Counted from the stretch's first letter, positions 4,875 through 59,603 are shown. The stretch: DNA of 64,000 bases from an uncultured Holophagae bacterium (GCA_963710645.1 CAVQBD010000002.1:138828-202827), one strand, 5' to 3'. The notes: generated from the sequence alone by a model not told the origin. Made by a program: numbers and translations.

Positions 4875-4916
4875 GTGAACGGTGAATAGTGAATAGTGAA
4901 TAGTGAATAGTGAATA
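4875..4916. repeat. Heptamer tandem array, GTGAATA x5 plus one degenerate unit
   Basis: Read directly from the DNA. It starts 11 nt after the TAG stop at 4862-4864. Confidence 0.95.
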
Positions 4917-4975
4917 GGGGGCAAGGGGGTAGGGGGCAGCCGAAAAAACGGTACAGGTCGCGGTGCGATGGAATC

Positions 4976-5071
4976 GTAGGCGCGCATCTCATGCGCGTTC
5001 CCGTGACGAATCAGCGATGCGGGAAGATCCTGCGATTGGCGGCCGACTGCGCGCGTAAGACGCGCGCCTAC
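4976..5071. other. GC-rich twin-hairpin element bounded by a 10-bp inverted repeat
   Basis: GTAGGCGCGC (4976-4985) pairs with GCGCGCCTAC (5062-5071). Internal hairpins are CGCGCAT-ctc-ATGCGCG (4981-4997) and GCGCGCG-taaga-CGCGCGC (5049-5067). Confidence 0.6.
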
Positions 5072-5089
5072 TGGTACCTTGAATCCGGC

Positions 5090-5142
5090 ATCTTGGATCT
5101 TGGATCTTGCATCTTGCATCTTGGATCTTAGATTTTGGATCT
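5090..5142. repeat. Heptamer tandem array, ATCTTGG/ATCTTGC, about 7.5 units
   Basis: Read directly from the DNA. It ends about 60 nt upstream of ATG 5202. Confidence 0.95.
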
Positions 5143-5201
5143 CCGACCAGTCACGCAAAAACCGTTGTACGCTTATAGGGCACTGGTCGAAAGGAGCGCT
5201 C

Positions 5202-5417
5202 ATGGAGATTCCAGGCAAGGTCTCCCTGTACTGTCCGCTGGTGGATGCAAAGGGCACTGCGGCAACCCTGGTCGCGGTCTCCCCACAGGGCTACTATCAG
5301 CTCGAGGTGATGGTCCAAGGCAATCGTCACACCATGTTCGTGCCGGTGGGTCATGCCGCGCTGTACTTCTCAGAACCCGAGATCGAACCCGACGAAGATC
5401 TCGAAATCGAACGTTGA
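5202..5417 (+). CDS. Small hypothetical protein (71 aa)
   Basis: ATG 5202 lies 6 nt after an AAGGAG RBS (5191-5196). It is the in-frame inner part of ORF 5079..5417, whose upstream part runs through ATCTTGG repeats. No family was recognised. Confidence 0.55.
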   Translation: MEIPGKVSLYCPLVDAKGTAATLVAVSPQGYYQLEVMVQGNRHTMFVPVGHAALYFSEPEIEPDEDLEIER

Positions 5418-5478
5418 ACGTCGCAGAACGCGGGATGAAGCGCGAATAATCGGGGGTCATGCTGCTGTTAAAGGTGGC

Positions 5479-6633
5479 GTGACCCAATTGGAAGATCTCC
5501 GCGATGTACTGGGCGAATCTCTGCCCGCGGTGCTGGAAAACCTCTCCGAGGCCGTGCTGATCCTGGATCACCAGCGCACGCTCAGGTTCGTCAATGAACG
5601 CGCCCGGCGTCTGCTCGGCTATGGCGAGTCCGAACCGCTGGGCGGCAGGTGTCGACTCACGACCCGTGGCATCGACTGCGAGAATGCGTGCCCCTTGACC
5701 TTCGCCCTGGAGAGTCGTCTGGACCGCGTCGACGATTTTGAAACGGTCTATCACACCCGGGACGGAAGAGCAGTTGCGCTCAAGGTGACGGTCATTCCGC
5801 TGAATGACTCCGATGGTGGCTTCCGAGGGGCTGTGGAGATCCTGAGGCCCACCGAGCCGGATCCCGGGGTGCTCCTTTCCGGACGAAGCGATGCGGCGCT
5901 GGCACTGCGTGACCGGGTCGCCGAGTTGGCCACATCCGATGCTCACCTGATGTTGGTCGGCGCGTCACCGGCGTGTTCGGACGTGGCGAGGACCATCCAC
6001 CGCTACTCCGGTGTGGCGGAGTCACTCTTCCATTGCTGGAATGGCTCCTGGAGTGGCATTCCGCCGTGGCCTCCGGGAACCATGTTTGCCGCCTCCGATG
6101 GCGAGGCGGGACCGTTGTCGGAAACCCCTCCCGAGGGATGGCGGGTCATCGTCGGTGTTGACGAACCGCCGGATGTGCACGGTGATGATTTGTTGCCGCA
6201 CGAGGTGGTGGAAATTCCGACGGCGAAAGACCTCCGGGTTGATATCCCGCTGATAGTGTCCGCTTGGTTGCGCGAGCTTGCTCCTTCGCTAAAAATCCAC
6301 CCGCTTGCCCTCGATAAGTTGACCAGGGTGGCTCAGGACGTGGGATTCGAACGATTTCAGAGGGTGCTGCATGGGGCGGTGGGAGCCGCCGGGGACCAAT
6401 TAGAAGAGCACCACATCCCCGAAGACGGATATCGGGCAGCCTATGTTGACGAGTTGTTGGCGCAGGACGATCCGTTGTCAGCCCTCGAGCGACGGTTGCT
6501 CTTCGAGGTGCTGGAACGCAGTGGCTGGCGGATGCAGGAGGCGGCCGATCGGCTCGGCATCTCCCGGGTGACCCTGTGGCGGAAACTCAAGGACCACGGC
6601 ATCGAACGGCCGAACAACCACTGTGAGAAGTGA
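5479..6633 (+). CDS. PAS-domain, degenerate sigma-54-activator-like protein with Fis-type HTH
   Basis: Part of ORF 5353..6633; the start is uncertain (GTG 5479 proposed). It has a Cys-rich PAS (GGRCRLTTRGIDCENACPL). The AAA+-like core has no Walker A (LVGASPACSD in its place) and no GAFTGA. The C-terminal HTH reads MQEAADRLGISRVTLWRKLK. Confidence 0.7.
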   Translation: MTQLEDLRDVLGESLPAVLENLSEAVLILDHQRTLRFVNERARRLLGYGESEPLGGRCRLTTRGIDCENACPLTFALESRLDRVDDFETVYHTRDGRAVALKVTVIPLNDSDGGFRGAVEILRPTEPDPGVLLSGRSDAALALRDRVAELATSDAHLMLVGASPACSDVARTIHRYSGVAESLFHCWNGSWSGIPPWPPGTMFAASDGEAGPLSETPPEGWRVIVGVDEPPDVHGDDLLPHEVVEIPTAKDLRVDIPLIVSAWLRELAPSLKIHPLALDKLTRVAQDVGFERFQRVLHGAVGAAGDQLEEHHIPEDGYRAAYVDELLAQDDPLSALERRLLFEVLERSGWRMQEAADRLGISRVTLWRKLKDHGIERPNNHCEK

Positions 6634-6653: not shown

Positions 6654-6690
6654 GGAATTAGAAATTAGAAATTAGAAATTAGAAATGTGA
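6654..6690. repeat. Heptamer tandem array, GAAATTA, about 5 units
   Basis: Located between convergent genes. A related degenerate array (CCCATTT CTATTTT CCCATTC TGCCTAT) at 6731-6760 abuts the stop of the minus-strand regulator. Confidence 0.9.
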
Positions 6691-6755
6691 AGTGGTTCCC
6701 GTCCGCCCGGGGAGCCTGGGATCCTCAAATTCCCATTTCTATTTTCCCATTCTGC

Positions 6756-8208: not shown

Positions 8209-8235
8209 TCGGTCGAAAGTCGAAAGTCGAAGGTT
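8209..8235. repeat. Heptamer tandem array, GTCGAAA, about 3.5 units
   Basis: It begins at the skp stop codon. The 11-mer AATAGTCGGTC, which contains the stop, is identical at 4860-4870 and 8204-8214. Confidence 0.9.
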
Positions 8236-8280: not shown

Positions 8281-8336
8281 CTGCCCGCTGCTCCCTGCCC
8301 CCTACTGCCTACTGCCTACTGCCTGCCGCCTGCCCG
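8281..8336. repeat. Heptamer tandem array, CTGCCCG/CTACTGC, 8 units
   Basis: CTGCCCG CTGCTCC CTGCCCC CTACTGC CTACTGC CTACTGC CTGCCGC CTGCCCG. Confidence 0.9.
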
Positions 8337-8423
8337 TTGGGCGGTTGGTCGGGCGGGGTTTTCGAATTTTACATTTCACATTTCGAATTGGGTGGGCGGG
8401 GGCCAGATATACTCGCCGCACCC

Positions 8424-11198
8424 ATGAGGCGCCTCACCCTCCCCGGATTGCGACTCGTCGCGCTGACCCTGGTGGTGGCGTTCTGGGCGGCCTTGGCCGC
8501 GGCCTCGGTGGAGGTTCTGGATCACCACGTTCCAGCCGAAGTGGAGCCGGGATCGAGGGCTACGGTAACGGTGGAGATCGCCAATCGAGGGGTTGATCCC
8601 TGGGATCCGGCGCTGGGGTACAAGCTCTCCTATCACTGGTTCGACGCAGACGGCGATGTGTTGGTATGGGATGGAGTGCGCACCGAGTTGTCGCGAGTCG
8701 TCGGAGTCGGAGAGGCGGTGGAACTCGAGGCTGTTATCGAGGTCCCCGGGCGGGAGGGCCGGCTTCAGCTGCAGTGGGACGTAGTCCAGGAGGGCCAGCG
8801 GTGGATGTCCGAGACCGACGATGCGACCGCGCGGCTCATAACGGTCGTCGCGGGCGTGGATTACGCATTTTCGATCGTGCGGGGCTCCGCCCCCCACCGC
8901 ATGGCGCCGGGCCGACGAACTGAACGTGAGCTGGTGGTTCGAAACGACGGCTCGCTGGAATGGCCGGCCGGGGCGGAAATCGCGGTCTCCTACCATTGGC
9001 TGACGCGGGACGGTGAGACTGTGGTGTGGGACGGGCTGCGGACGGCTCTGCCCACCAGAGTGTCTCCGGGACGCGAGGTCAAGGTCTCTGCCGTGGTGGA
9101 GGCACCAGGTCGATCGGGCAGGTATGAGCTGCAATGGGACCTGGTCCACGAGGGGGTTTTGTGGTTCAGCCAGCGGGATCCTTCGCCCGAGCCGCCATCA
9201 ACGGTTGCGGTGATGGGACTCGCCACCCTGGGGCTCGCAGGTTGGGCTGTGATCAGCCTGGGGCTTGCGATGGTGGCGGTTGTGGTTGCCGGCGGGCGGT
9301 TGCGACCGTTGGCCGGGTTGGTGGCGTTGGCGGACATCCCGTGGTGTGTCGCAGCCGTGATCGTGAAACAGAACGCCGTCCTGCTGGAGTTCGGACAGTC
9401 GCCGGGGTCGTGGTCCGTTCTTCTGACCGTGGCGGGGATTTTTGTGCTCTTGTTGCCGGCTCTGTTCTTTCCGCCGCGGTTTCGGGTGTGGTGCAGTTGG
9501 GTCCTGGCGGCCGTTGCTTCGGCGGTCCTGTACGCCGATCTGGTGTACGGGAGGTTCTTCGGTGACCTCCTGTCGGTGTCGGTGGCGGGCGCAGCGGGCC
9601 ACACCGACGAGGTGAGTGCCAGCATCATCAGCCTGCTGAGACCCGGTGACGTGTGGTTCTGGCTCGACCTTGTGGCCGGGGTCGTGCTGGTTGCCGCGGT
9701 GGCCCGGCTCGCCGCGATGCTCGATGAGCGGCCTCCGCGAGTTGTGGCCGGCGGGCTGGCGGCGGTCGTGATTCTCGGCGGGCTGGTGGCGATGTCCCTG
9801 GTCCGATCGCAGGCGGTCTCCGTCAGCCAGATCTTTCGTAACGTCTACCTCGCGAGGGAGATCGGCGTCCTCAATTTCCACGTCGTTGATGCTGGTGCGG
9901 GCCTGTTCCGGAGTGTTGAATCCGGTCCGCTTGATGAATCGGAGGTGGCGCGTCTGACGCAGTGGTTTGCCGACCGGTGGCCGTCGAGAACGGGTGTGGG
10001 GCCGGCTTTCGGTGCGGCGGCAGGTGCCAATGTGGTGATGGTGCAAGCCGAGTCGTTGCAGGCGTTCGTGCTCGGTCTTTCAGTCCGTGGCCAGGAGATT
10101 ACCCCATTCCTTAACCGCTGGTCCCAGAGTGCGCTGGTGTTTTCCAACGTCACCGACCAGACGGCACAAGGCCGGTCGTCCGACTCGGAACTCGCCACCC
10201 AGGTGTCGCTGTTGCCACCTCCCGCAGGGGCCGCGGCGTTCCTTTATGCGGGCAACGACTTCACCGGCATGGCCGGCATCCTGGACGGTCTTGGATATCA
10301 CACGCTGTCGGCGGTGGCGTTCGAGGCCTCGTTCTGGAATCGGCAGTTGACCCATGCCGGGTATGGCTACTCCGAGAGCCTCTTCGAGGGTGAATTCGAG
10401 GGCGGACCGGCCGTGGGATGGGGTCTGAACGACCGGAGTTTCTTCCAACAGATGGCCGGTCGGCTGGCCGGGCTGCCGGAGCCATTTTGCGCATATTTGT
10501 TGACCTTGTCGCTCCACCACCCCTTCGATGGTTTTCCTGAGCAGTTCAAAGAACTCGATCTGGGCGATCAGGAGGGACAACCGATTGGCAACTATCTCCA
10601 CACGATGCGGTTTTTTGACCGGGCCTTCGAAGCTCTGATCTCAGAGCTCGAGTCGACGGGGCTGGCCGAACGAACATTGGTGGTGGTCTGGGGGGACCAC
10701 GACGCGGGCTTCGAGTGGACGCCAGAGTTCGCGGCCCTGACCGGCCACAGGCCGGATCCGGTGGGCTGGTACCAGAGCCAAATGGTGCCGCTACTGATCA
10801 AAGTCCCGGGGGCCGAAGGACCGAGCGGCGATGTGGGGGCGCCGGCCGGACATCAGGATGTGGCGCCGACCCTTCTGGCATTGCTTGGAGTGGACCCGGC
10901 GCCGTATGCCTTCGTTGGTCGCAACCTGCTGGGCGATCCCGGCAGCGGTCCGGTGGTTGGCGAGTACCACTGTTGGCGTGACGCGCGGCACATTTTCCTC
11001 CAGGGCGGAGGTCGGCTGGAAGACGGAGAGTGCTTCATCCTGCCGGATCTCACACCGGTGGCCCCAGCGGCGTGTGCCGACGGATTCGCGGCCGCCATGG
11101 CTCAGGTCGATGCATCGCGGATCGTGCTCGAGCACGATCTGCAGGCGGAGATCCATCGGCGGTTGGTCAATGGAGATGGTGGGAAGGTGAAAAGGTGA
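8424..11198 (+). CDS. Membrane protein with two N-terminal Ig-like repeats and a C-terminal LTA-synthase/sulfatase (alkaline-phosphatase superfamily) domain
   Basis: ATG 8424 followed by a signal/TM segment. There is a duplicated roughly 110-aa module (YKLSYHWFDADGDVLVWDGVRT...LQLQWDVVQEG versus VSYHWLTRDGETVVWDGLRT...YELQWDLVHEG). A multi-TM block follows, then sulfatase-like motifs (VVMVQAESLQ, GWGLNDRSFF, LSLHHPF, VVWGDHDAG). Confidence 0.75.
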   Translation: MRRLTLPGLRLVALTLVVAFWAALAAASVEVLDHHVPAEVEPGSRATVTVEIANRGVDPWDPALGYKLSYHWFDADGDVLVWDGVRTELSRVVGVGEAVELEAVIEVPGREGRLQLQWDVVQEGQRWMSETDDATARLITVVAGVDYAFSIVRGSAPHRMAPGRRTERELVVRNDGSLEWPAGAEIAVSYHWLTRDGETVVWDGLRTALPTRVSPGREVKVSAVVEAPGRSGRYELQWDLVHEGVLWFSQRDPSPEPPSTVAVMGLATLGLAGWAVISLGLAMVAVVVAGGRLRPLAGLVALADIPWCVAAVIVKQNAVLLEFGQSPGSWSVLLTVAGIFVLLLPALFFPPRFRVWCSWVLAAVASAVLYADLVYGRFFGDLLSVSVAGAAGHTDEVSASIISLLRPGDVWFWLDLVAGVVLVAAVARLAAMLDERPPRVVAGGLAAVVILGGLVAMSLVRSQAVSVSQIFRNVYLAREIGVLNFHVVDAGAGLFRSVESGPLDESEVARLTQWFADRWPSRTGVGPAFGAAAGANVVMVQAESLQAFVLGLSVRGQEITPFLNRWSQSALVFSNVTDQTAQGRSSDSELATQVSLLPPPAGAAAFLYAGNDFTGMAGILDGLGYHTLSAVAFEASFWNRQLTHAGYGYSESLFEGEFEGGPAVGWGLNDRSFFQQMAGRLAGLPEPFCAYLLTLSLHHPFDGFPEQFKELDLGDQEGQPIGNYLHTMRFFDRAFEALISELESTGLAERTLVVVWGDHDAGFEWTPEFAALTGHRPDPVGWYQSQMVPLLIKVPGAEGPSGDVGAPAGHQDVAPTLLALLGVDPAPYAFVGRNLLGDPGSGPVVGEYHCWRDARHIFLQGGGRLEDGECFILPDLTPVAPAACADGFAAAMAQVDASRIVLEHDLQAEIHRRLVNGDGGKVKR

Positions 11199-11207
11199 GA
11201 AGGTGAG
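11176..11207. repeat. Period 7-8 array, (R)AAGGTG x4, overlapping the end of a CDS
   Basis: GGTGGGAAGGTGAAAAGGTGAGAAGGTGAGCGG. The TGA stop of the LtaS-like gene (11196-11198) lies inside the array. Confidence 0.8.
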
Positions 11208-11335
11208 CGGTCCCCCTCTCACCCGGAGCGTTCTTAGTGTCGGCCCTGGCACCGGGAGGCCCTGATAGCGGGACGAAGCGCCCGAAGTGTCGGCCCTGGC
11301 ACCGAGAGGGGCCCTTGTTCCATCTGGCACCGGGA

Positions 11336-11497
11336 GGCGCGTTCGGTTTGACTCGGTGATTTCGTCGCGCCCATCTCCCAACCGCGCTCCCCGCGGGAGC
11401 CACCCCTGACACTTATCGGGATCCGAGGACGTTGAGAACCCCAAGGGGACGACCCCGAAAGTGTCAGAAGTGGCACGCCCGCCCATCGCGCCCACAG
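11336..11497 (-). repeat. Dispersed roughly 160-nt repeat, copy A (inverted relative to copy B at 23806-23966)
   Basis: The reverse complement aligns by eye with 23806-23966. The shared cores are GGGCGCG(T)ATGGGCGGGCGTGCC and GTGTCAGGGGTGGC..C..CGGGGAGCGCGGTTGGGAGATGGGCGCG. Confidence 0.8.
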
Positions 11498-11651
11498 GCG
11501 CTCCGGATCGGTGAGGGCCACAACCCACAACCTACACCCTGGTCGGGCGGGGGAATTGACACTCCCGGTGCTTGCTTGTCCTATTGACTGTCGGCGGTGC
11601 CCTCCCTACGATGAACTGGTCCCGCCGCACCTCGGAATCAAAGGAGCCAAC

Positions 11652-12695
11652 ATGAATCAGAAGGCCGACAAGCTCAAGGCATTGGAGACCGCCATCGGGC
11701 AGATCGAACGGCAGTTCGGCAAGGGTGCGGTCATGCGCATGGGGGAGCAGCCGGGGATCCGGGTGAACATCATCCCCACCGGATCGATCGCTCTTGATGC
11801 GGCCCTGGGCGTGGGCGGTGTCCCCCGCGGCCGCGTGATCGAGATCTATGGGCCCGAGTCCTCCGGGAAGACGACCCTCGCCCTGCACGTGATCGCCAAT
11901 GCCCAGGCCACCGGCGGGCTGGCCGCGTTCATCGACGCGGAGCACGCTCTCGATCCGGAATATGCCGGCAAACTGGGGGTCAATCTGGACGAGCTCTTGA
12001 TCTCTCAGCCGGACTTTGGTGAACAGGCGTTGGAGATTGCCGAGACCTTGATCCGGTCGGGTTCGGTGGACGTCATTGTGGTGGACTCGGTGGCGGCGCT
12101 GGTCCCCAGGGCCGAACTCGAGGGCGACATGGGAGACGCGCAGATGGGACTTCAGGCCCGTCTGATGTCGCAGGCCCTGCGGAAGCTCGCGGGCATCGTC
12201 TCCAAGTCCAACACCAGCCTGGTTTTCATCAACCAGGTCCGGGAGAAGATCGGAGTCATGTTCGGCAACCCGGAGACCACCACCGGTGGCCGGGCCCTCA
12301 AGTTTTACAGCTCGGTGAGGATCGACATCCGGCGCACCAGCGCCATCAAACAGGGCGACGCGGTCATCGGCAACCGCACTAAGGCGAAGGTGGCCAAGAA
12401 CAAGGTCGCCGCACCATTCAAGATCGCCGAGTTCGACATTCTGTACGGTGAGGGGATCTCACGCACCGGCGAACTGCTGGATCTCGGTGTGGAGCACAAG
12501 CTGGTCCAGAAGTCGGGTTCCTGGTATTCGGCGGGGGAGACCCGGATCGGCCAGGGCCGTGAGGCGGCGCGGGCTTTTCTGGCCGAAAACTCTGAGTTGG
12601 CAGCGGAGATCGAGTACAAGCTGAGGGAGGCTCTGGGGCTGATTCCGACAAAGGAAACCAAGAGTCCGGATGCCGCTGAGAAACCCTCAGACTGA
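11652..12695 (+). CDS. recA: Recombinase RecA
   Basis: ATG 11652 follows an AAGGAG RBS. Walker [11 protein letters not shown], and the classic [16 protein letters not shown]-terminus. Confidence 0.97.
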
Positions 12696-12779: not shown

Positions 12780-13904
12780 ATGAGTCCGAAATCCGCGTGG
12801 GCAGTGGTCATGATTCTGGCTGGGTTGGCGGTTGGAGTGGGAGCCGAAACTGCCGACCCGCCGGATCAGGATCCGGTACTGCTCCGTTTCATGGAACGTG
12901 CCATGACCTACTATCCGGACTCCACCTTCCGGGTGACTTCCATCGACCGCAGGCAGACACCGTCGGGTTCGTACCGCTTGGTCGAGGTCGACCGAGCGTG
13001 CGCAAACGACCGGCTCTCCGGTCCCCGGACCGTGGTGATTGACGACGTTTCGGATTTGGCGTGGTTTGGAAGCGCCGCCCAACTCCCACTGCAGGAAACC
13101 GGTGTCGGCGGCGATGCGTTGCGGAGCTTTCTCAACGAGTTCCTGCCCGGTGCCTTGAAATCGAGCCTGCGGATGAAGGCGACCCTGGACTGGTCCGACC
13201 CCCCTTACCGCAACGGCGCCTTACTGTCGTTTTGGCTGCTGGTGGACTCCGGCTACGGCGAGTACCGGAGGGCCGCTTCGGTCACCTCGGACGGAGCATA
13301 TGTGGTGCTCGGACCCGTCTACCCGCTCAACGTGGATCCGGTGGAGTATCGGCGCCGCTTGCTCTCTGACAGTGAGGTGGTGGTCTGGGATCATGTGGGC
13401 TCCGACGACGCCAAGGTGCAGATCGTGGAGTTTTCGGATTTCGAGTGCCCGGCGTGCCGGCGCACCTGGCCCACGGTCAAGACCGTGCTTGAAACCAAAG
13501 GCTCGACGGTCAGCCACGGGATGGTGAGCTACCCGCTGACCGTCATCCATCCGTGGTCCTTCCGGGCAGCGTCCGCATCGTGGTGCGTCAGCGCCCAGCA
13601 ACCGGATCTCATGCTGCCGTTCAAGGAGCTGTTCTACGATCTCCAGACTGAAATGGGTGTGTCGCTCGTAACCCCCACGGCAAACGACTTCGTGGCCGCC
13701 AATGGACTGGATGAGGTGGCTTTCGACGCCTGCTATTTGAAGTCGGAGTCCCTTGATGCCGTCCACCGCCAGATATCCCTCGCCCACGAGATCGGCATCA
13801 TTTCCACGCCCACCTATCTCGTCAACGGATATGTTCTCCAGGTTGTTGCAGAGGATTGGCTCGTGAAACTCATTGACGACCTGGCGGCCGGTGAGGAACC
13901 GTAG
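12780..13904 (+). CDS. Secreted thioredoxin-fold thiol:disulfide oxidoreductase (DsbA-like)
   Basis: Signal peptide (SAWAVVMILAGLAVGVGA) and a C-terminal thioredoxin-like domain with a CPAC active site (VEFSDFECPACRR). GTG 12774 is an alternative start. Confidence 0.7.
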   Translation: MSPKSAWAVVMILAGLAVGVGAETADPPDQDPVLLRFMERAMTYYPDSTFRVTSIDRRQTPSGSYRLVEVDRACANDRLSGPRTVVIDDVSDLAWFGSAAQLPLQETGVGGDALRSFLNEFLPGALKSSLRMKATLDWSDPPYRNGALLSFWLLVDSGYGEYRRAASVTSDGAYVVLGPVYPLNVDPVEYRRRLLSDSEVVVWDHVGSDDAKVQIVEFSDFECPACRRTWPTVKTVLETKGSTVSHGMVSYPLTVIHPWSFRAASASWCVSAQQPDLMLPFKELFYDLQTEMGVSLVTPTANDFVAANGLDEVAFDACYLKSESLDAVHRQISLAHEIGIISTPTYLVNGYVLQVVAEDWLVKLIDDLAAGEEP

Positions 13905-13906: not shown

Positions 13907-13988
13907 GAAAATTCGAAATTCGAAAACCCTCACCCTCCCGGTTGGGCGGGGGCCACTTCTCATTTCTCATTTCACATTTCTCATTTCC
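13907..13988. repeat. Heptamer arrays, AAATTCG x3 (13907-13927) and CATTTCT x5 (13954-13988), flanking a GGTTGGGCGGGGGCC motif
   Basis: The first array starts 3 nt after the TAG stop at 13902-13904. The second ends 7 nt before the sigma-54 -24 element. Confidence 0.9.
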
Positions 13989-22898: not shown

Positions 22899-23588
22899 AT
22901 GGCAGGCACAGGGTGGAGCAGCAGGTGGTGGAAGCCCGCAGCCGGGGTGGCAGGGGTTGCGGTGGGAATATTGCTGGCCTGGCGGTTTGGCGCCTTTGAC
23001 CTGCTTACGGTTGACAACATCGACCGAATGGACCGGTGGTTCGACGTTCTTGGGATCTGGGCGCCGGTGGTCTTCATCCTGCTGTGGGTCGCAGCGGCGG
23101 TCTTCTTCCTTCCGGGGCTTCCCATATCCATCGCCGGGGGCCTGATCTTCGGTGCCGTCTGGGGCACCGTCTACACCACAATCGGCGCCAACCTGGGCGC
23201 GGCCGCAGCTTTTCTCATCGGCCGCTACCTGGCGCGGGACATGGTGGAGGGCCAGATCGAGAACAACGCCTCCCTGGTAAAAATCGACGAAGGCGTGAGG
23301 CGTCACGGCTGGCGCATGCTCATGATCACCCGGCTGGTGCCGGTCTTCCCCTTCAACATTCAGAACTACGTCTACGGTCTGACCGACATCGGACTCGGCA
23401 CCTACGTGTTGGTCAGTCTGGTGTGCATGGTGCCCGGGACCGTTGCCTACAACTTCGCGGCCGGCTCGGTCCGCACCGGGGATCTCGGCATGACCCTCTG
23501 GTATCTCGGAATCGCGGCCGTATTCTTCGTGCTGCTGTCGTTGCTGCCGGGGTGGATCAAGAAGCGGTATGGCGCAGGGGTGGAATAG
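22899..23588 (+). CDS. TVP38/TMEM64 (DedA-related, SNARE-associated) membrane protein
   Basis: Motifs FLPGLPISIAGGLIFG, GANLGAAAAFLIGRYLARD and RLVPVFPFNIQNYVYGLT. Confidence 0.75.
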   Translation: MAGTGWSSRWWKPAAGVAGVAVGILLAWRFGAFDLLTVDNIDRMDRWFDVLGIWAPVVFILLWVAAAVFFLPGLPISIAGGLIFGAVWGTVYTTIGANLGAAAAFLIGRYLARDMVEGQIENNASLVKIDEGVRRHGWRMLMITRLVPVFPFNIQNYVYGLTDIGLGTYVLVSLVCMVPGTVAYNFAAGSVRTGDLGMTLWYLGIAAVFFVLLSLLPGWIKKRYGAGVE

Positions 23589-23595
23589 GGTTCAA

Positions 23596-23782
23596 GTTGA
23601 AAGTCGAAAGTCGAAAGTCCCACCGGTCCAGGAGGCCAACAACTCGGGACTCGGGACTCGGGACTGAGGACTCGGGACTCGTCCCCCGCCCTCCCTCCCG
23701 GGACGACAACAGGGCGCGATGGGCGGGCGTACCACTCCGGGCACCTTCAAGTTGAAAGTTGAACGTTAAACGTTGAACGTTC
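23596..23782. repeat. Composite of heptamer arrays: GTYGAAA x3 (23596-23616), ACTCGGG x6 (23642-23683), AAMGTTG x5 (23748-23782)
   Basis: Each array is followed by CCC.CCCTCCCTCCC-GGACGACAACAGGGCGCG-ATGGGCGGGCGT. This makes a roughly 150-nt super-unit present twice in tandem (about 23590-23745 and 23746-23835). Confidence 0.85.
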
Positions 23783-23805
23783 CCACCCTCCCTCCCAGGA
23801 CGACA

Positions 23806-23966
23806 ACAGGGCGCGTATGGCGGGCGTGCCGTCTCTGACGATTTTGGGTTGAGGTCGAACAGTCTGCGTGTCGCGACGAGTCCCGAACAGTGTCAGGGGT
23901 GGCAACCTCGGGGAGCGCGGTTGGGAGATGGGCGCGTCGAAGCCGGTGAATCGAACCGTACGCCCG
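23806..23966 (+). repeat. Dispersed roughly 160-nt repeat, copy B
   Basis: See copy A at 11336-11497. The ORF-track translations of both loci share ...CQGW.PRGARLGDGR...ESNRT.... Confidence 0.8.
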
Positions 23967-24081
23967 TGCCCGGGTTCCGGCGCCAGCGGCAGCGTTCAGC
24001 GACAGTAACCAGCGACAGCAACCAGGCAACAGCGATCCGGGGGAGCGGCCGAACGGCTCACAGGGCGGGCGGCGGATCGAA

Positions 24082-24183
24082 CATCCAGGATCCAGCATCG
24101 AACATCCGGCATCCGGCATCCGGGTGGGCGGTGGATCTTGAATCTTGAATCTTGGGTCTTGCATCTTGGGTCTTGCATCTGGT
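24082..24183. repeat. Heptamer arrays, CATCCGG x6 (24082-24123) and ATCTTGR/GTCTTGC x7 (24135-24183)
   Basis: The arrays are separated by GGGTGGGCGGTGG. The second array belongs to the same unit family as 5090-5142. Confidence 0.9.
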
Positions 24184-24441
24184 CGGGTGGGTGGGGGCCC
24201 GGCGTTACGCGCTGGGAACGGCAAGAACGCCGGTGTCACAGCCAAATCCCAGGGTTCCGGGCGCCCTTTTGCGAAAGGCACAAGCGACAGCCGGCCCCAA
24301 GCCTTTCACCAACCGCGATTTCCGACGGTGGAGAGGGTTGGTGGGTGATCCGGGGAGACTCGAAATCATACCGTTTTCCTAAGGAATAGGAATTGCTCAA
24401 TTGTCCGGGGATGAGGTGTGCCTGTGGGCGATGGATCGAAT

Positions 24442-24471
24442 TTGAAATCCCTGCAAAATCTCCTCTATTTG
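24442..24471 (+). promoter_or_regulatory. Weak sigma-70-type promoter candidate for dsrMK
   Basis: TTGAAA (24442-24447), an 18-nt spacer, then TATTTG (24466-24471), inside the only AT-rich tract of the 940-nt spacer. Confidence 0.3.
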
Positions 24472-24529
24472 ATCGACTATCTCAATATTCCAGAAGAGAA
24501 TTCGGTATGATGGGCGAGGAGTGCTACTG

Positions 24530-25465
24530 ATGACTATTATTACTTATATGATCGCTTACTGTGGCATCGCAATCTTCCTGGTGGCCTGCGTGGCCCGGTT
24601 CAAGATGTGGTCGAAGATGCCCATGCACCTTCGCTGGGAACTCTACCCGGTGGCCCATGAGGGTGGCGGCAGAGCCGCGTACGGCGGTTCCTACCTCGAG
24701 GAAAGTGATTGGTGGACCAAGCCTCGCAACGTCTCGCTCGTGGGCGAGGCCAAGGTGATGGTGCCTGAAATCCTCTTTCTCGAGGCTCTCAAGGAGCACA
24801 ACAACCAGCTCTGGAAGCGCTCATTCCCGTTCCATTTCGGGCTCTACCTGGTGGCAGCGTGCACCATCCTGATGATGATCAACGGCATTCTGAGCGCCCT
24901 GCTGCCGGGGCTCATGGGTGGAATCATCGGGACGCTCTTCTCCTGGATGATCCCGATCACCGGCTACGCCGGGTTGATCATGGGATTGGTGGGTGCGGTG
25001 GGTCTGATCCAGCGGCGATTCGTCAAACCGCTGCGCGACTACTCGGCGCCCGTCGACGTGCTCAACCTCGTGTTCTTCGTGGTGGCCTTTGGTACGGCCC
25101 TGGTGACAGCACTTTGGGTCGACCACGGCTTCGAGCGGGTCACCGCGTTTGTCGGAAATCTGGTGACATTCCACGTCGCCCCGCTCCCGGGAACAGGGCC
25201 GGAGGTCCTGATGCCCATGATCTCGGCCATCCTGCTCGCTCTTCTGGTGGCCTACATTCCACTCACACACATGTCCCACTTCGTGGGCAAGTATTTCGCA
25301 TATCATTCCATCCGCTGGGCAGATGAACCCAATCTCCGCGGCGGAAAGCAAGAGAAGGTCATTCACGAGTTGTTGGACCAGCCCGTGTCATGGTCGGCCC
25401 CCCATATTCAGGGTGACGGCAAGAAGACGTGGTTGGATGTCGCGACGGAGGATCAGAAGAAATGA
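24530..25465 (+). CDS. dsrM: DsrM-like membrane b-type cytochrome (NarI/HdrE family)
   Basis: ATG 24530 lies 8 nt after a GAGGAG RBS. It is a polytopic membrane protein with the NarI-like N-terminus ...RFKMWSKMPMHLRWELYP. An ATGA overlap couples it translationally to the DsrK-like gene. Confidence 0.75.
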   Translation: MTIITYMIAYCGIAIFLVACVARFKMWSKMPMHLRWELYPVAHEGGGRAAYGGSYLEESDWWTKPRNVSLVGEAKVMVPEILFLEALKEHNNQLWKRSFPFHFGLYLVAACTILMMINGILSALLPGLMGGIIGTLFSWMIPITGYAGLIMGLVGAVGLIQRRFVKPLRDYSAPVDVLNLVFFVVAFGTALVTALWVDHGFERVTAFVGNLVTFHVAPLPGTGPEVLMPMISAILLALLVAYIPLTHMSHFVGKYFAYHSIRWADEPNLRGGKQEKVIHELLDQPVSWSAPHIQGDGKKTWLDVATEDQKK

Positions 25466-27066: not shown

Positions 27067-27070
27067 GTCA

Positions 27071-27126
27071 GTGACTCGTGAATAGTAAATAGTGAATAGT
27101 GAATAGTGAATAGTGAGTCGAGAATA
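27071..27126. repeat. Heptamer tandem array, GTGAATA family, 8 units
   Basis: It starts 5 nt after the dsrK TAG stop and belongs to the same unit family as 4875-4916, 22 kb away. Confidence 0.95.
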
Positions 27127-27154
27127 GTCGGAAGCTGACAGCATCAAATGATCA

Positions 27155-27236
27155 GAGACCGCCCACCCGCGTGGGCGGTTTTTTCAATGGCCCCGCCCTG
27201 GCCGATCCAAGAACGAAGAACGAAGAACGAAGATCC
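27155..27236 (+). repeat. 75-82-nt direct repeat, copy 1 (terminator hairpin, CAATGGCCCCGCCCTGGCCGATCC, then AAGAACG array)
   Basis: Apart from the AAGAACG unit count, I saw no difference from 27501-27575. This copy has three full AAGAACG units; copy 2 has two. Confidence 0.9.
27159..27184 (+). terminator. Rho-independent terminator downstream of dsrK (copy 1)
   Basis: CCGCCCAC-ccgc-GTGGGCGG gives an 8-bp GC stem with a 4-nt loop, followed by TTTTTT. Confidence 0.8.
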
Positions 27237-27263
27237 CCCCCACCCGCCCGGGTGGGGGTTTTT
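27237..27263 (+). terminator. Second hairpin and T-run terminator
   Basis: CCCCCACCC-gccc-GGGTGGGGG followed by TTTTT. Confidence 0.65.
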
Positions 27264-27500
27264 GTCGTCCCGTCCAGAGTGGGGGAGTGATCGGAACGAG
27301 ACCGCAACCCCGTTCCCGCTCCCGTTCCCGTTCCCGGGCACGGGGGCAGGCAGTACGGAGTGCAGTAGGGAGCAGGGGGCGGTCCACCTCTGAGCCCGTT
27401 GTCGTTACCGTTACCGAATACTCGGACCGGGGTGTCTGGGGGCCGTGAGCCGTGAGCTGTGCGCAGGCAGTCGGCAGGAACCCATAGAACCCAATCGATC

Positions 27501-27575
27501 GAGACCGCCCACCCGCGTGGGCGGTTTTTTCAATGGCCCCGCCCTGGCCGATCCAAGAACGAAGAACGAAGATCC
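27501..27575 (+). repeat. 75-82-nt direct repeat, copy 2
   Basis: See copy 1 at 27155-27236. Confidence 0.9.
27505..27530 (+). terminator. Rho-independent terminator (copy 2; identical hairpin to 27159-27184)
   Basis: Same CCGCCCACCCGCGTGGGCGG hairpin and T6, inside the second copy of a 75-82-nt direct repeat. Confidence 0.7.
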
Positions 27576-56361: not shown

Positions 56362-57720
56362 ATGGATAACAGTGATTTCGATCCGGCACAGATCATTCTT
56401 GACAGCGTCGCCGACGGGGTCTTCACCGTCGATCGCCAGTGGCGCATCAGCTCGTTCAACCGGGCAGCGGAAGAGATTACAGGCGTGCCCCGGGAAGAAG
56501 CTCTGGGACAACGCTGCTGCGATGTGTTTCGGGCCAGCATCTGTGAATCCGGTTGCGCCCTCAGACACACCCTCGAAACCGGGGAAAATGTCGTCAACAA
56601 AAAGGTTTTCATTGTCGATACCGACGGTACCAAACTCCCGGTGAGCGTTTCGACGGCGATCCTCAGGGACGCCGATGGGCAACCCAAGGGTGGTGTCGAG
56701 ACCTTTCGCGATCTCAGCCACGTCGAGCAGCTGCGCAAGGAACTCGAGGGCCGTTTCTCGCTCGGCGACATCATTGGCCGCAGTCGTCCCATGAGGGACC
56801 TTTTCGAAGTGCTTCCGGCGATCGCGGCCAGCGAGAGCACCGTCGTCGTCCACGGCGCCAGCGGGACAGGCAAGGAGCTCTTCGCCCGTGCGATCCACCA
56901 GCTGTCACCGAGACGGGACAAACGGTTTGTTGCCATCAACTGTGGTGCTCTTCCGGACACTCTGCTTGAAAACGAACTCTTCGGCCACGTGGCCGGCGCC
57001 TTCACCGACGCCCGTCGTGACAGGCCGGGTCGTTTCGCCCATGCGGAAGGGGGCACCATCTTCTTGGATGAGATCGGGGATATTTCCCAGGCGATGCAGG
57101 TTCGTCTGCTGCGGGTTCTCCAGGAGCACGTCTACGAGCCTCTCGGCTCGGTGGAGCCGGTGACAGCCGACGTCCGGGTCATCGTCGCCACTCACCGCGA
57201 TCTCGCAAGCCTCGTTGAGGATGGAGTTTTCAGGGAAGACCTCTACTATCGCATCAACGTGATGAAGCTGGAGCTGCCGGCATTGAAAGAGCGCCGGGAG
57301 GACATTCCGCTGCTGGTGGATCATTTTGTCCAGCGATTCAACCGGCTTCAGGACAAGGACGTCGTCGGAGTGTCGGACGAGGTTCTCAGCCTGCTCATGA
57401 CATATTCGTTCCCAGGCAACGCCCGGGAGTTGGAAAACGTCATCGAGCACGCCTTCGTGCTCTGCAATGAAGGCTGCATCGAACTCAGACACCTGCCACC
57501 TGAAATCAGTCAGGGATCCGAAGTTCCTCCGGTGGAATCCCGGGGGGGAATGACTCTCCGTGAGATGGAAGCCCTGCAAATATCGCTTGCACTCCACCGC
57601 CATGGCGGAAACCGGAAGGCGGCGGCCGATGAGCTTGGGATCCACCCGAGCACCCTCTTCCGGAAACTCAAGGATCTGGAGATCGAGCCGCCGGAGCGCG
57701 ACGGTCGGAATAGTCAGTAG
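56362..57720 (+). CDS. Sigma-54-dependent transcriptional activator with an N-terminal Cys-rich PAS domain
   Basis: ATG 56362 is residue 463 of listed ORF 54976..57720; the upstream 462 codons are the antisense shadow of the kinase gene. PAS with GQRCCDVFRASICESGCAL, Walker A GASGTGKE, GAFTDA loop and a C-terminal Fis-type HTH. Confidence 0.9.
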   Translation: MDNSDFDPAQIILDSVADGVFTVDRQWRISSFNRAAEEITGVPREEALGQRCCDVFRASICESGCALRHTLETGENVVNKKVFIVDTDGTKLPVSVSTAILRDADGQPKGGVETFRDLSHVEQLRKELEGRFSLGDIIGRSRPMRDLFEVLPAIAASESTVVVHGASGTGKELFARAIHQLSPRRDKRFVAINCGALPDTLLENELFGHVAGAFTDARRDRPGRFAHAEGGTIFLDEIGDISQAMQVRLLRVLQEHVYEPLGSVEPVTADVRVIVATHRDLASLVEDGVFREDLYYRINVMKLELPALKERREDIPLLVDHFVQRFNRLQDKDVVGVSDEVLSLLMTYSFPGNARELENVIEHAFVLCNEGCIELRHLPPEISQGSEVPPVESRGGMTLREMEALQISLALHRHGGNRKAAADELGIHPSTLFRKLKDLEIEPPERDGRNSQ

Positions 57721-57748
57721 GCCGTGAGCGGCCCACCCACCCGCCCAG

Positions 57749-57834
57749 GCAGTAGGGAGTAGCGCCCGCCCCCCCCAGGCAGTGTTCCGGGTTTCGAGTT
57801 GCCCCCCACCCGGATGCGAGATACGAGATGCGAG
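57749..57834. repeat. Heptamer units GCAGTAG/GGAGTAG (57749-57762, the reverse complement of the CTACTGC family) and ATGCGAG/ATACGAG x3 (57814-57834)
   Basis: Located between the activator stop codon and the IS3 left end. Confidence 0.8.
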
Positions 57835-57889
57835 TTCCCCCTCCGGTGGCGTCCTGTAATAGGTTGACACTCGAGAAGGGGGTGGGCCT

Positions 57890-58291
57890 ATGGCGGGAAG
57901 GACGATGCGATACAGTGAGGCATTCAAGCAGCAGGTAGTGGACGAGCTCGAGGCGGGGCGATTTGGGAGTCCACATGAGGCATCACAGGCCTACGGTGTT
58001 GATTCGGGGTCGGTGAAGCGTTGGGCTAGACAGTACGGCAAGGGGCACTTGCTGCGGAAGGTGGTACGAGTGGAGAAGCAAGACGAGCCTGGGGAGATCA
58101 AGCGTTTGAAGGAACGGGTGCGAGGCTTGGAAGCTGCGTTGGCGGATTCGGTGATGGACCAGGCGTTGGATCAGGCGTTTTTCGAGATTCTGTGCGAGCG
58201 GATGGGCATCGACGCGAGAGAGTTTAAAAAAAAGCACGCTGGTCAGGCGTCCACCGGGCGGGCAAGAAACTCCAAGGACGACGCGGAGTAA
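57890..58291 (+). CDS. IS3-family transposase OrfA (HTH)
   Basis: MRYSEAFKQQVVDELEAG...VKRWARQY plus a leucine-zipper-like region, typical of IS3 OrfA. Confidence 0.85.
   Translation: MAGRTMRYSEAFKQQVVDELEAGRFGSPHEASQAYGVDSGSVKRWARQYGKGHLLRKVVRVEKQDEPGEIKRLKERVRGLEAALADSVMDQALDQAFFEILCERMGIDAREFKKKHAGQASTGRARNSKDDAE
58228..58234 (+). other. Programmed -1 ribosomal frameshift heptamer A AAA AAG in the IS3 element
   Basis: TTTAAAAAAAAG at 58223-58234. In the orfA frame the codons are AAA AAA AAG. The -1 frame downstream reads ARWSGVHRAGKKLQGRRGVSIERLCCKVGMTRQNYY with no stop codon before orfB. Confidence 0.7.
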
Positions 58292-58302
58292 GCATCGAGA
58301 GG

Positions 58303-59109
58303 TTGTGCTGCAAGGTGGGCATGACCCGGCAGAACTACTACAAGCAGAGGCGGCGGCGAAGACGGAGAGAAGTCGACGAGAGTCTGATCATCGCTCTGGT
58401 CAGGCGGGAGCGACAGCAGCAGCCGCGGCTTGGTTGTAGGAAGCTCCATCGGCATTTGCGTCAGCAGTTTCGAGACGCCGGTATCCAGGTCGGTAGAGAC
58501 CGGATGTTTGAGGTTCTTCGTCATCACGGGATGCTGGTCAGACCGTTGCCGAAGAAACCCCGCACTACGTTTTCGGGGCACTCTTTGCCGGTGTATAGGA
58601 ATCTCATCTCTGAGCTTGAGGCCACGGCTCCAAACCAGATCTGGGTCAGCGACGTGACCTACATCCGGACGTGGGGGGGGTTTGAGTACCTCACTCTGAT
58701 CATGGACCTGCACTCCCACAAGATCGTCGGCTATCACTGTGGAGAAAGCCTCGACACCAAGACTTCCATGAAAGCGTTGGATCAGGCGATTGCGGATCTG
58801 CCAGACGACAGGTATCCAATTCACCATTCAGATCGAGGAAGCCAGTACTGTAGCCACAAGTATGTCGAACGCCTGAATGGTCGCTACTTGCCGGTGAGCA
58901 TGACCGAGTTGAATCACTGTGCCGAAAACTCAACTGCAGAGAGACTCAACGGCATCCTCAAACAGGAGTATGGCCTCGGAAGAACTTTCCTCAGCCGGCA
59001 GCAGGTACGACGCGCTGTCGATGAAGCCGTCTGGCTCTACAACCACCGCCGACCCCACATGACCCTCGATTACCAATACCCTGCCAAGGTCCATGAACTG
59101 GCCGCCTGA
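58303..59109 (+). CDS. IS3-family transposase OrfB (rve/DDE integrase core)
   Basis: IWVSDVTYI (D), HHSDRGSQY (D) and AENSTAERLNGILKQE (E). The -1 frame is open from the slippery site at 58228 through to this ORF. Confidence 0.9.
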   Translation: MCCKVGMTRQNYYKQRRRRRRREVDESLIIALVRRERQQQPRLGCRKLHRHLRQQFRDAGIQVGRDRMFEVLRHHGMLVRPLPKKPRTTFSGHSLPVYRNLISELEATAPNQIWVSDVTYIRTWGGFEYLTLIMDLHSHKIVGYHCGESLDTKTSMKALDQAIADLPDDRYPIHHSDRGSQYCSHKYVERLNGRYLPVSMTELNHCAENSTAERLNGILKQEYGLGRTFLSRQQVRRAVDEAVWLYNHRRPHMTLDYQYPAKVHELAA

Positions 59110-59603
59110 CAAGGCTGGCTCCTTCACACAACTTGATCACTTCTCCACAGCCTGATGAACCACCGCGCGGCCCACCCTCCCGACTGCGGAGTTGCGGAAA
59201 GCTGGCCCCCTCCCCACCTCCCTCCACCTTCCCACAGCCTCCGCAGCCACGACGACGAATAGTGACAACTTTTCGCCAGGACTTGACCAGCGTTTCATCT
59301 TGGCATCCTGAGCGAGGCCCACCGGGCCGAGTCGAAGGATCTGGGTGGGTGGGGAGCCGATGCGTTCTTGCCCCCACCCAGACCCTTCGTCGCTCCGCTC
59401 CTCAGGATGACATCTGTCTTCCTCATTCTCGAGTTCAATCGAGGCTGGAACTGCCTACTGCCTACTGGCATCAATCGCGAAATGCGACGGTAGCCTCCGT
59501 TGCCCGGGCAGCGTTCTGCGAGGCAGCCGTGGCGCGTCTCGTTCGTTCGTTCGTAACTATATTTTTTTGAACATCTTAAGACCGAGAGTGCAGCAGAAAG
59601 AGT

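Follow-up and report, generated by a model that had tools for sequence, protein, structure and literature searches.

We found that the long intergenic spacers of a 64-kb stretch of DNA from an uncultured bacterium (GCA_963710645.1, CAVQBD010000002.1:138828-202827; this whole stretch is called the window below) carry tandem arrays of seven-nucleotide units, which belong to the heptanucleotide class of short tandemly repeated repetitive (STRR) sequences, also described as long simple sequence repeats (SSRs). The window represents a new lineage (Thermoanaerobaculia, Acidobacteriota) for a known class of repeats and not a new kind of element. The arrays change length in steps of whole units, their units turn over, they are confined to non-coding DNA, they are concentrated in the 3' flanks of genes, and they keep their position while the unit drifts. 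It is possible, although we would stop short of calling it probable, that these slippage-made arrays are kept in the orientation of the preceding gene as part of putative 3'-end/terminator modules; we consider retention in such modules because of the position of the arrays, their strand bias, their adjacency to hairpins, and their persistence at orthologous stop codons. The novelty of the window lies in its lineage, in the multiplicity of unit families, in the adjacency to boxes and hairpins, and in the retention of position with turnover of the unit.

Tandem Repeats Finder (TRF), run on the whole window, returned about 25 rows of period 7 and recovered essentially every array that had been listed in a first-pass annotation made from the sequence alone. 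Runs were counted according to two criteria: a strict perfect-run test and a looser criterion, applied after the gene list had been corrected on the basis of Pfam matches. The looser criterion gave 23 segments, 22 of them intergenic, i.e. about 22 intergenic period-7 arrays in the window, compared with 0-1 intergenic segments for each of the periods 5, 6 and 8-11. In the strict test period 7 yielded nine arrays, periods 2, 5, 6 and 8-15 none, period 4 a single run and period 3 seven short ones, and 20 Markov shuffles contained no array of period 6-9. The excess of self-identity at lag 7 that such arrays should produce is present in the window (0.326 in intergenic versus 0.259 in coding DNA). 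When the arrays are masked, the intergenic lag-7 identity is still 0.279, compared with a background of 0.261 +/- 0.005, which indicates that degenerate (decayed) arrays are also present in the spacers.

Period-7 arrays cover 591 of the 5,686 intergenic nucleotides (10.4%), as opposed to 17 of the 58,314 coding ones (0.03%), and none lies within any confident open reading frame (ORF) of the window. The avoidance of coding sequence claimed in the first-pass annotation therefore stands, while the only exception it allowed, at a gene end (11173-11207), is not a heptamer array but a repeat of period 8 (GAGAAGGT). The statement that almost every long spacer is populated proved accurate for spacers above 300 nt (5 of 5) and overstated for those of at least 100 nt (9 of 17; of those of at least 200 nt, six of eight contain an array); by the looser criterion there is no array in the three divergent spacers, nor in any window spacer from 28 to 57 kb. 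Within the 64 kb at least 13 unrelated unit families coexist, GC-rich ones among them. The list of arrays requires small amendments only: the GCCGTGA array at 27442-27461 and a weak one at 11518-11536 had been missed, and the supposed array at 57749-57762 comprises just two imperfect units.

The source organism is not a cyanobacterium, as the gene content had already indicated: RecA (11511-12695) is 82-87% identical to RecA proteins from metagenome-assembled genomes (MAGs) of Thermoanaerobaculia/Thermoanaerobaculales, and the DsbA-like protein likewise places the window in Thermoanaerobaculia, Acidobacteriota. Other genes of the window encode sigma54 regulators, an OmpH-like protein, and redox proteins resembling Hdr/Nuo and Dsr. 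Expressed as period-7 arrays with at least 2.5 copies per 100 kb, the density is 36 in the window, 6.1 in nine Thermoanaerobaculia loci and 1.7 in 71 loci of other bacteria, i.e. the window exceeds the sampled unrelated genomes about 20-fold. Closer relatives, gathered with the DsbA-like and iron-sulfur (Fe-S) proteins as queries and designated L081-L090, carry arrays of the same kind at 19-62 per 100 kb.

The placement of the arrays relative to genes is biased. Of 22 window arrays, seven begin no more than 25 nt past the stop codon of the upstream gene (binomial 3e-4): six follow the stops at 4864, 6633, 8208, 13904, 23588 and 27066 (all but that at 6633 having been correctly reported before), and a degenerate one follows the minus-strand gene at 6756. 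Of the 14 spacers with the 3' end of a gene, 9 contain arrays, as against none of the three divergent ones. When post-stop arrays from independent gene ends of the window and its relatives are read on the sense strand, A exceeds T in 14 cases, the two are equal in seven, and T never exceeds A; this bias tracks the orientation of the gene, one minus-strand gene included, and not the replication strand.

The arrays also border on boxes rich in C or G (CCCnCCCnCCCGG or the complement thereof), which often constitute the two arms of one hairpin. Such a box lies within 12 nt of 23 among 57 arrays, compared with 11.6 +/- 2.7 for arrays placed at random in the same spacers, and none of 2,000 simulations reached 23. 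Hairpins followed by a T-run, which is the canonical terminator type, stand beside arrays at 27159-27184, 27237-27263, 27505-27530 and 8328-8362, while the T-rich arrays at 13954, 8366 and 6725 in the window and at ~5560 in L085 are located 3' of hairpins. In the layout that recurs, a stop codon is followed first by an A-rich array, then by a hairpin and finally by a T-rich array or T-run (13907-13988; 6654-6755).

As to the stop codons, TAG terminates six of the seven genes with an array within 25 nt versus 8 of 40 other genes (Fisher p = 0.0016), and it is kept in L086 also, where the array is absent. The 11-mer reported to be shared by the ends of two unrelated genes is indeed there (AATAGTCGGTC, at 4860 and 8204) and spans the TAG stop of both. 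The 9-mer AATAGTCGG is found three times on the plus strand (4860, 8204 and 27123) against an expectation of 0.16, with the third copy situated at the end of a GTGAATA array. At the orthologous stop of the sigma54-regulator gene L085 retains TAGTCGG.

Comparison of paralogous and orthologous sites reveals how the arrays change. The duplicates 27157-27239 and 27503-27578, each composed of a terminator (hairpin + T6), a linker and an AAGAACG array, are 100% identical but for exactly one AAGAACG unit, which demonstrates that arrays gain or lose length in whole units. At orthologous stops of the DsbA-like gene the AAATTCG arrays comprise 2.5, 3.1, 3.4 and 3.4 units, and the copy numbers given for orthologous arrays overall span 2.5-3.7. 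Around this stop, in eight of nine genomes whose DsbA-like proteins are 63-100% identical, an array of period 7 (or 7/8) begins 0-10 nt downstream, with the unit AAATTCG in the window, L081, L082, L084 and L085, AATTCGC (x4.4, perfect) in L090, AGTCTAA in L089 and CGTTGAAA in L007; the array is absent from this position in L088. At such sites a mutated unit spreads through the array (concerted change), e.g. AAATTCG of the window corresponds to perfect AATTCGC in L090. Five of six genomes have an array no more than 30 nt past the stop of the sulfatase-like gene, and the stop of the Fe-S gene is followed by ~8 units of GTGAATA in the window versus GTCTAAA x7.1 at the orthologous position in L087. 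L084 and L081, which are close relatives, have identical arrays, and AAATTCGAAATTCGAAAA together with the C-box that follows it is identical across three deep lineages, for which third-codon-position identity is only 0.64-0.66 (window versus the L085 group). By this measure, the AAATTCG array and its C-box are conserved beyond the neutral expectation derived from synonymous sites. The place of an array behind a particular stop codon is kept, with a drifting unit, between genomes with synonymous sites close to saturation.

A mechanism that would accommodate these features may be outlined as follows. Slipped-strand mispairing in the course of replication would make and resize the arrays, with the 7-nt step set by the replication or repair machinery, as has been proposed for prokaryotes generally, and stalling at the adjacent stable hairpins would possibly favour slippage. 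An array situated between a stop codon and a hairpin would provide an unstructured, AU-rich stretch of tunable length, and the succession of array, hairpin and U-rich sequence could act like the A-tract and the U-tract of a terminator; alternatively, the U-rich stretch might be a landing pad in the 3' untranslated region (UTR) for RNases or RNA-binding proteins. Function would in either case be tied to position, period and composition more than to the exact heptamer. A more ambitious version, which we regard as unlikely, would make post-stop heptamer arrays an orientation-specific class of 3'-UTR/terminator elements, tunable by slippage and read by the machinery that terminates transcription and translation or by an oligomeric binder of nucleic acids with one motif per 7 nt, the units of which would be (TC-N-AAA-N)n / (GAA-N4)n here, G-rich in Xanthomonas and Nostoc, and of other kinds elsewhere. 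Were this true, the retention with unit turnover (8 of 9 genomes) would testify to selection for "an array here", and the 35-year-old STRR/heptamer puzzle would gain a testable function.

Several observations speak against a role of the arrays in putative 3'-end modules. Neither the GC-rich arrays (ACTCGGG, CATCCGG, CCCGGAA and CTACTGC) nor those on the 5' side of genes (5090, 27814) suit the part of an A-tract or U-tract, and many arrays have no hairpin nearby. The array-hairpin-array folds in the window are no more stable than those of shuffled sequences (z = -0.5, -1.6), and a simple terminator scan of 4-15 kb detected no excess. Turnover is high, with arrays present in both the window and L085 at only two of six orthologous gene ends, and L086 and L088 lack arrays that their relatives possess. 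A role independent of sequence leaves it unexplained that identical units (GTGAATA, GTCGAAA, AAATTCG) occur at non-homologous loci. Nor does it account for the 7-nt step; the more distant relatives L001 and L007 also have arrays of period 6 and period 8. Finally, multicopy palindromic elements reside in the same spacers, so that the arrays could be tolerated junk. A related structural idea, that the arrays flanking a hairpin pair with each other into one long stem, fails in the window, where the z-scores are those given above, and holds for a dispersed element of L087.

The alternative that survives best, doubtful in our opinion yet far from negligible, is that the arrays are a neutral by-product, i.e. 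microsatellite-like products of slippage in unconstrained DNA, with the 7-nt bias arising from the polymerase and from loops that evade repair. They would be seeded by A- or T-rich sequence at terminator hairpins and would spread, or seem to recur, by hitch-hiking on spacer elements that resemble miniature inverted-repeat transposable elements (MITEs) or repetitive extragenic palindromic (REP) sequences. The unit-step changes, the decaying arrays (L085 3625-3765), the residual lag-7 signal after masking, and the high rate of gain and loss between relatives are all compatible with this explanation, as is the adjacency to hairpins, which fits slippage induced by stalling. Several arrays do reside within dispersed elements: AACGTTG in 23684-24016, AAGAACG in an 85-nt duplication, the inverted arrays of a two-copy element in L087, and the AAATTCG + AGATCCC pair duplicated around a Y1 transposase gene in L084. 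Moreover, the excess of heptanucleotides in prokaryotes has been attributed in the literature to polymerase slippage and weak repair of loops longer than 3 nt (PMC4679880, PMC4060949).

The pattern of recurrence is harder to reconcile with a neutral origin. Among 21 arrays there are four pairs with units of an identical class, against 0.10 expected, and none of 20,000 simulations reached four. In BLAST comparisons of spacers with one another GTGAATA, ATCTTGG, GTCGAAA and CTACTGC recur without homology of the flanks. Larger dispersed repeats were considered as the cause of all recurrence and account for two units only, AAGAACG, which recurs inside the 85-nt duplication, and AACGTTG, the array of which is part of a multicopy element (23684-24016) common to L084 and L085; the other four units lack flank homology. 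Window units reappear in relatives, too: ACTCGGG as TCGGGAC x6.7 after a stop codon in L090, CATCCGG as its reverse complement CCGGATG x8.9 in L088, and AAATTCG at several loci per relative. With units recurring at distant loci without flank homology and in relatives, purely local and independent slippage is insufficient; the argument for a dispersed family made in the first-pass annotation was sound in this respect, although slippage does resize the arrays by units. Neutrality is further opposed by the conservation of the AAATTCG array and C-box far beyond synonymous sites, by the array kept at one stop codon in eight of nine genomes, and by the strand bias that follows the gene and not the replication strand.

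Recurrence of preferred units within and across genomes may also be taken as a sign that the post-stop TC-N-AAA-N / GAA-N4 arrays are targets of an oligomeric RNA- or DNA-binding protein which contacts one motif per 7 nt and would regulate 3'-end processing, decay or termination. The logic would be like that of TRAP or HutP, which bind spaced triplets, or else each heptamer would take up one cold-shock domain. Most post-stop units are one or two substitutions away from AAATTCG in a common register (AAAGTCG, AAAGTCT, AAAATCG, AAATTAG, GAATTCG), and GAA is present in 7 of 14 unit families of the window versus ~10% expected, which is a post hoc count. The strict orientation and the 3-8 units per array, a number appropriate for a ring or an oligomer, agree with periodic binding; CspB is known to bind heptamer repeats, one protein per heptamer (PMC4679880), and a Nostoc preprint infers a heptamer-binding partner. 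We nonetheless consider periodic binding quite unlikely, as at least 13 unrelated unit families, some of them GC-rich, coexist in 64 kb, the unit at one and the same site changes between relatives (GTGAATA versus GTCTAAA; AAATTCG versus AGTCTAA), no candidate protein was identified, and the GAA / TC-N-AAA pattern was noticed only after the data had been seen.

Heptamer repeats in a promoter reportedly serve as a phase-variation switch in a Haemophilus study, and the window arrays might by analogy be contingency loci, in which changes of copy number in promoter or 5'-UTR arrays toggle the neighbouring genes. Copy number does change in unit steps, and there are a few arrays on the upstream side of genes (5090-5142, at a distance of 60 nt from the ORF at 5202; 27814-27848, at a gene start). 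Most of them, however, are situated after stop codons or between terminators and not between promoter elements, the three promoter-bearing divergent spacers contain none, the neighbours are housekeeping or redox genes, and the arrays are short (3-8 units) and identical in the close relatives L084 and L081, all of which renders phase variation very improbable. We give even less credence to action through G-quadruplexes or slipped structures of the Xanthomonas/Nostoc type (non-B DNA). (ACTCGGG)5.7 and the complement of (CCCGGAA)n do exhibit a G3-N4 periodicity, and next to arrays lie G-rich boxes as well as a G5 x3 block (4917-4937); still, most units have no G-run, only one or two arrays could qualify, and the window contains no tandem dimers of GGGAATC or GGGGAYT. 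An assembly or sequencing artefact, conceivable for a window that probably comes from a long-read metagenome assembly, has a negligible probability and can be dismissed, since the arrays are only 20-56 nt long and the same arrays are found at the matching gene ends in independent assemblies from several samples and pipelines (JGI Ga0316187, Ga0272441, Ga0186781 and Ga0366820; ENA ERZ25039514 and ERZ25039603).

Against these rivals, slippage-made arrays retained in putative 3'-end modules remain our tentative choice, and the nature of the arrays can be further specified by comparison with other heptamer systems. They exhibit all three features of the generic heptanucleotide long-SSR/STRR-like class, namely 7-nt tandems above chance, a non-coding location, and dispersal in the genome together with presence in relatives, which agrees with their initial description as non-coding and STRR-like. 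Heptamer arrays have been known in cyanobacteria since 1990, and the STRR units CCCCAGT, TTGGTCA and CAACAGT are said to have been described in that year by Mazel and co-workers. To our knowledge, the function of cyanobacterial STRRs has not been established in 35 years, and we know of no STRR description that includes an association with stop codons and hairpin boxes. The window arrays share with STRRs the dispersed intergenic location and the presence of several unit families per genome, but they come from another phylum, from a genome with ~62% G+C, and have other units; the three STRR units make no tandem dimer on either strand of the window.

The STRR family had been named as the only precedent, which is incorrect, as heptamer families are known from Xanthomonas, Nostoc, Beggiatoaceae, Bacteroidetes and Geobacter; the architecture as such is therefore already known. 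For this particular lineage it had not been catalogued: our literature search found no report that ties heptamer arrays to Thermoanaerobaculia or Acidobacteria. According to the summaries of Mrazek et al. 2007 in PMC4679880 and PMC4692102, heptanucleotides are the most abundant class of long simple repeats in most prokaryotic genomes, and polymerase slippage over a contact of ~7 nt has been proposed as the cause; mismatch repair is weak on loops of more than 3 nt (Huang and Mrazek 2014, PMC4060949). As far as these summaries describe it, the long-SSR class resembles the window arrays in the 7-nt excess, the non-coding location, the patchy phylogeny and slippage as the proposed cause, with the difference that the long-SSR work is statistical and has the form of a survey. 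As for STRRs, PMC4692102 mentions three tandem heptanucleotides of the strain Calothrix PCC 7601.

A close resemblance exists to the arrays of Xanthomonas (~185 GGGAATC arrays per genome) and Nostoc PCC 7120 (GGGGAYT arrays; Rehm et al. 2015, PMC4692102). Their usual place is between ORFs of the same orientation, seldom in divergent spacers; they are mostly transcribed, vary in length between species, mostly comprise 2-8 copies, number ~90-190 per genome, and frequently form inverted pairs (PMC4692102). The window arrays are likewise intergenic tandems of 7-nt units and obey the same placement rules; inverted pairs are found in L087, and length and sequence vary between related species. They differ in that Xanthomonas and Nostoc each have one dominant G-rich, G-quadruplex-forming unit, whereas at least 13 families, mostly without a G-run, coexist in the window; G3 per unit is found only in ACTCGGG (23642-23683) and in the complement of CCCGGAA, and the window arrays as a whole do not belong to the Xanthomonas/Nostoc G-quadruplex type, which has a G3-4 run in every unit and at least four units. 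A-rich post-stop arrays and separate C-/G-rich hairpin boxes are features of the window. Nostoc also provides a further heptamer case, the TTTTGAA repeats.

TAACTGA repeats of marine Beggiatoaceae, Cyanobacteria and Bacteroidetes occupy more than 100 sites per genome with 2-6 units each (MacGregor 2015, PMC4679880), with a suspected post-transcriptional role (PMC4679880). They are similar to the window arrays as intergenic tandems of few heptamers at many sites, but have a single unit and occur mainly just upstream of start codons, while the window arrays mostly follow stops. The multicopy elements of Geobacter metallireducens are built of four or five tandem heptamers (GGGACCG x4 at 49 sites; MTYCTGA x5) and have been annotated as putative regulatory sites or RNAs (PMC2700814); unlike the window arrays, they are of fixed copy number, are intragenic as well as intergenic, and comprise other units. 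No tandem dimer of GGGAATC, GGGGAYT, TAACTGA or GGGACCG is present in the window.

Enterobacterial REP sequences and bacterial interspersed mosaic elements (BIMEs) are also 3'-end spacers, composed of short GC-rich palindromes and linkers, located at operon ends and linked to Y1 transposases of the REP-associated tyrosine transposase (RAYT) type. Mosaic 3'-end spacers, turnover between relatives and a Y1_Tnp gene among the arrays of L084 are points of similarity; REP units, however, are palindromic, and in the window palindromic boxes and a 96-nt element accompany the heptamer arrays. The arrays themselves, being direct, non-palindromic repeats, fall outside the REP/BIME or MITE definition, into which the companion elements at 4976-5071 and 23684-24016 do fit. 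A CRISPR array can be discarded, as the units are contiguous and 7 nt long, compared with repeats of 24-48 nt with unique spacers of about equal size.

The window and its relatives make an informative system, with many unit families per genome, arrays situated between stop codons and hairpins, and a series of related genomes that keep the position. A position that is kept while the unit changes separates "position and period matter" from "sequence matters", and the significance of the arrays would grow if positional conservation reflected a function in 3'-end formation. There is also a practical side: arrays that make up 10% of intergenic DNA will mislead ORF callers and predictors of terminators and small RNAs in Thermoanaerobaculia MAGs. 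Several spurious ORFs in the window run through arrays, and those at 23766-24281 and 59295-60236, both on the minus strand, have no Pfam match. The window contains no tRNA and no Rfam match at the gathering score, nor is there one at E<=1 within 23560-24540. Two other roles for the units were considered and rejected. As three-frame stop traps only units with TAG, TGA or TAA (GTGAATA, GAAATTA) could serve, since AAATTCG, GTCGAAA and ATCTTGG contain no stop triplet; and the counts of units that could be read as a 6-bp palindrome plus one nucleotide (TTCGAA+A, AACGTT+G, TGATCA+C, GAATTC+S) or as carriers of GATC are near chance.

The individual arrays and hairpins, all given on the plus strand, are as follows; the arrays are TRF calls. 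The GTGAATA array at 4875-4917 (~6 units; 4882-4917 in TRF, with 5.1 copies and 100% matches) starts 11 nt past the TAG stop (4862-4864) of the sigma54 response-regulator gene and is directly followed by the G5 x3 block GGGGGCAAGGGGGTAGGGGGC (4917-4937). The first ATCTTGG array (5090-5142, 7.6 units) comes directly after the 96-nt inverted-repeat element (4976-5071), 60 nt upstream of the small ORF at 5202. The GAAATTA array (6654-6690, ~5 units) begins 21 nt past the TGA stop at 6633, and 3' of it are a hairpin (6694-6716) and a degenerate array that is T-rich as given and A-rich when read in the sense of the convergent gene. Next come the GTCGAAA array (8209-8235, ~3 units), which abuts the TAG stop of the OmpH-like gene, and the composite CTGCCCC / CTACTGC array (8281-8336; four overlapping TRF rows of period 7 and 14), which extends into the 5' arm of the hairpin at 8328-8362. 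Just 3' of this hairpin and its TTTT lies the T-rich CATTTCA array (8366-8384, 2.7 units). G-rich boxes such as GGGTGGGCGGGGG are found at 8391, 24120, 24184, 27752 and 59340.

The weak CCACAAC array (11518-11536) comprises 2.7 units with 91% matches. Behind the DsbA-like gene, the AAATTCG array (13907-13927, 2.5-3 units) starts 3 nt past the TAG stop and is separated from the T-rich CATTTCT array (13954-13988, ~5 units) by a GC-rich hairpin (13927-13952) made of the C-box CCCTCACCCTCCC and the G-box GGGCGGGGG, so that the second array is directly 3' of the hairpin. Past the VTT-domain gene, 6 nt from its TAG stop, a GTCGAAA array (23594-23619, 3.7 units) opens a long series: an ACTCGGG array (23642-23683, 5.7 units) abutting the C-box hairpin 23685-23729; an AACGTTG array (23748-23782, ~4.5 units) flanked by copies of this hairpin at 23685-23729 and 23782-23826; an imperfect CATCCGG array (24082-24123, 5.7 units) followed by a G-box; and the second ATCTTGG array (24135-24183, 6.6 units) with G-boxes on both sides.

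The spacer downstream of the Fe-S (CCG-domain) gene begins, 4 nt past the TAG stop, with the second GTGAATA array (27071-27126, ~8 units), followed by a canonical terminator-like hairpin with T6 (27159-27184), of which there is another copy at 27505-27530. An AAGAACG array (27209-27236; three units plus AAGATCC) lies directly upstream of the terminator hairpin 27237-27263, and its paralogous copy at 27555-27575 has two units plus AAGATCC. The same spacer contains the GCCGTGA array (27442-27461, 2.9 units) and the CCCGGAA array (27814-27848, ~4 units), the latter with a G-box before it and with its end at the start of the following gene. In this place relatives have a minus-strand gene for a MIP (aquaporin) protein (L086 11804-12502, L087 11729-12436), and the window (27067-27851) has a 785-nt spacer of arrays, terminators and duplications; a search of 27067-27851 for a MIP pseudogene by tblastn gave no credible remnant (best E = 0.37). 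Two arrays remain near the far end of the window: ATGCGAG (57813-57834, 3.1 units), downstream of the C-box 57732-57749, and CTACTGC (59450-59470, 2.6-3 units), which matches the unit at 8301-8324 and has flanks without homology to it.

Repeats of other periods are found in the same kinds of places. The array spacers of the window contain CCCGTT (period 6) and CAGCGACAGCAAC (period 13), at 27309-27336 and 23997-24025, and spacers of relatives contain long hexamer arrays of the GACAGC/CACTGC type (L001 12521-13290, L007 2391-2666). The period-8 repeat at 11173-11207 (x4.4) forms the 3' end of the sulfatase-like gene; the corresponding sequence is AGGGGAGA in L084 (5374-5392) and GAAGTAGG in L085 (8427-8443), i.e. 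the unit differs in each genome, and thus the C-terminal tail of the protein is repeat-encoded and variable.

The spacers of the window or its relatives also accommodate larger dispersed elements. The 96-nt element at 4976-5071 has terminal inverted repeats (GTAGGCGCGC...GCGCGCCTAC) and two internal hairpins. Copies occur in L085 (~4708-4812, reverse; 5429-5537) and L084 (1639-1734, reverse; 2415-2441; 11244-11312; 13525-13593), in different spacers and both orientations, with 80-100% identity between genomes (80-91% for the longer matches). It looks like a mobile element of the MITE type or of the type formed by paired REP sequences (REPIN). A Y1_Tnp protein (PF01797) is encoded among these repeats in L084 (12308-13285).

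The second element, of ~330 nt, is found in the window at 23684-24016 (plus strand) and 11330-11421 (minus strand), in L085 at 11126-11441, and in L084 at 11305-11599, 13584-13782 and 5526-5600. It consists of two C-box hairpins around the AACGTTG array and a 200-nt core, which is predicted to fold into a ~32-bp stem and a second hairpin. Between genomes in which synonymous sites are only ~65% identical, this core shows 84-92% identity, and its copies are at non-orthologous positions. The element has no Rfam match, and no covariation is seen among its copies because of their high similarity; a mobile palindromic element and a non-coding RNA are both conceivable.

The third element, of ~130 nt, is present in L087 (7095-7222, 8454-8559) and L089 (20300-20427). 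Inverted heptamer arrays, (GAGTTYT)n and (AACTAAG)n, form its arms and enclose a 50-nt core; in the predicted fold the arms pair into a long stem, which is interrupted by one bulge in each heptad (z = -2.5 for one copy). In L084, a pair of AAATTCG and AGATCCC arrays stands on each side of a 2-kb insertion with the Y1 transposase gene in it (11132-11218 and 13412-13496), an arrangement which suggests that the spacer was split and copied by the insertion.

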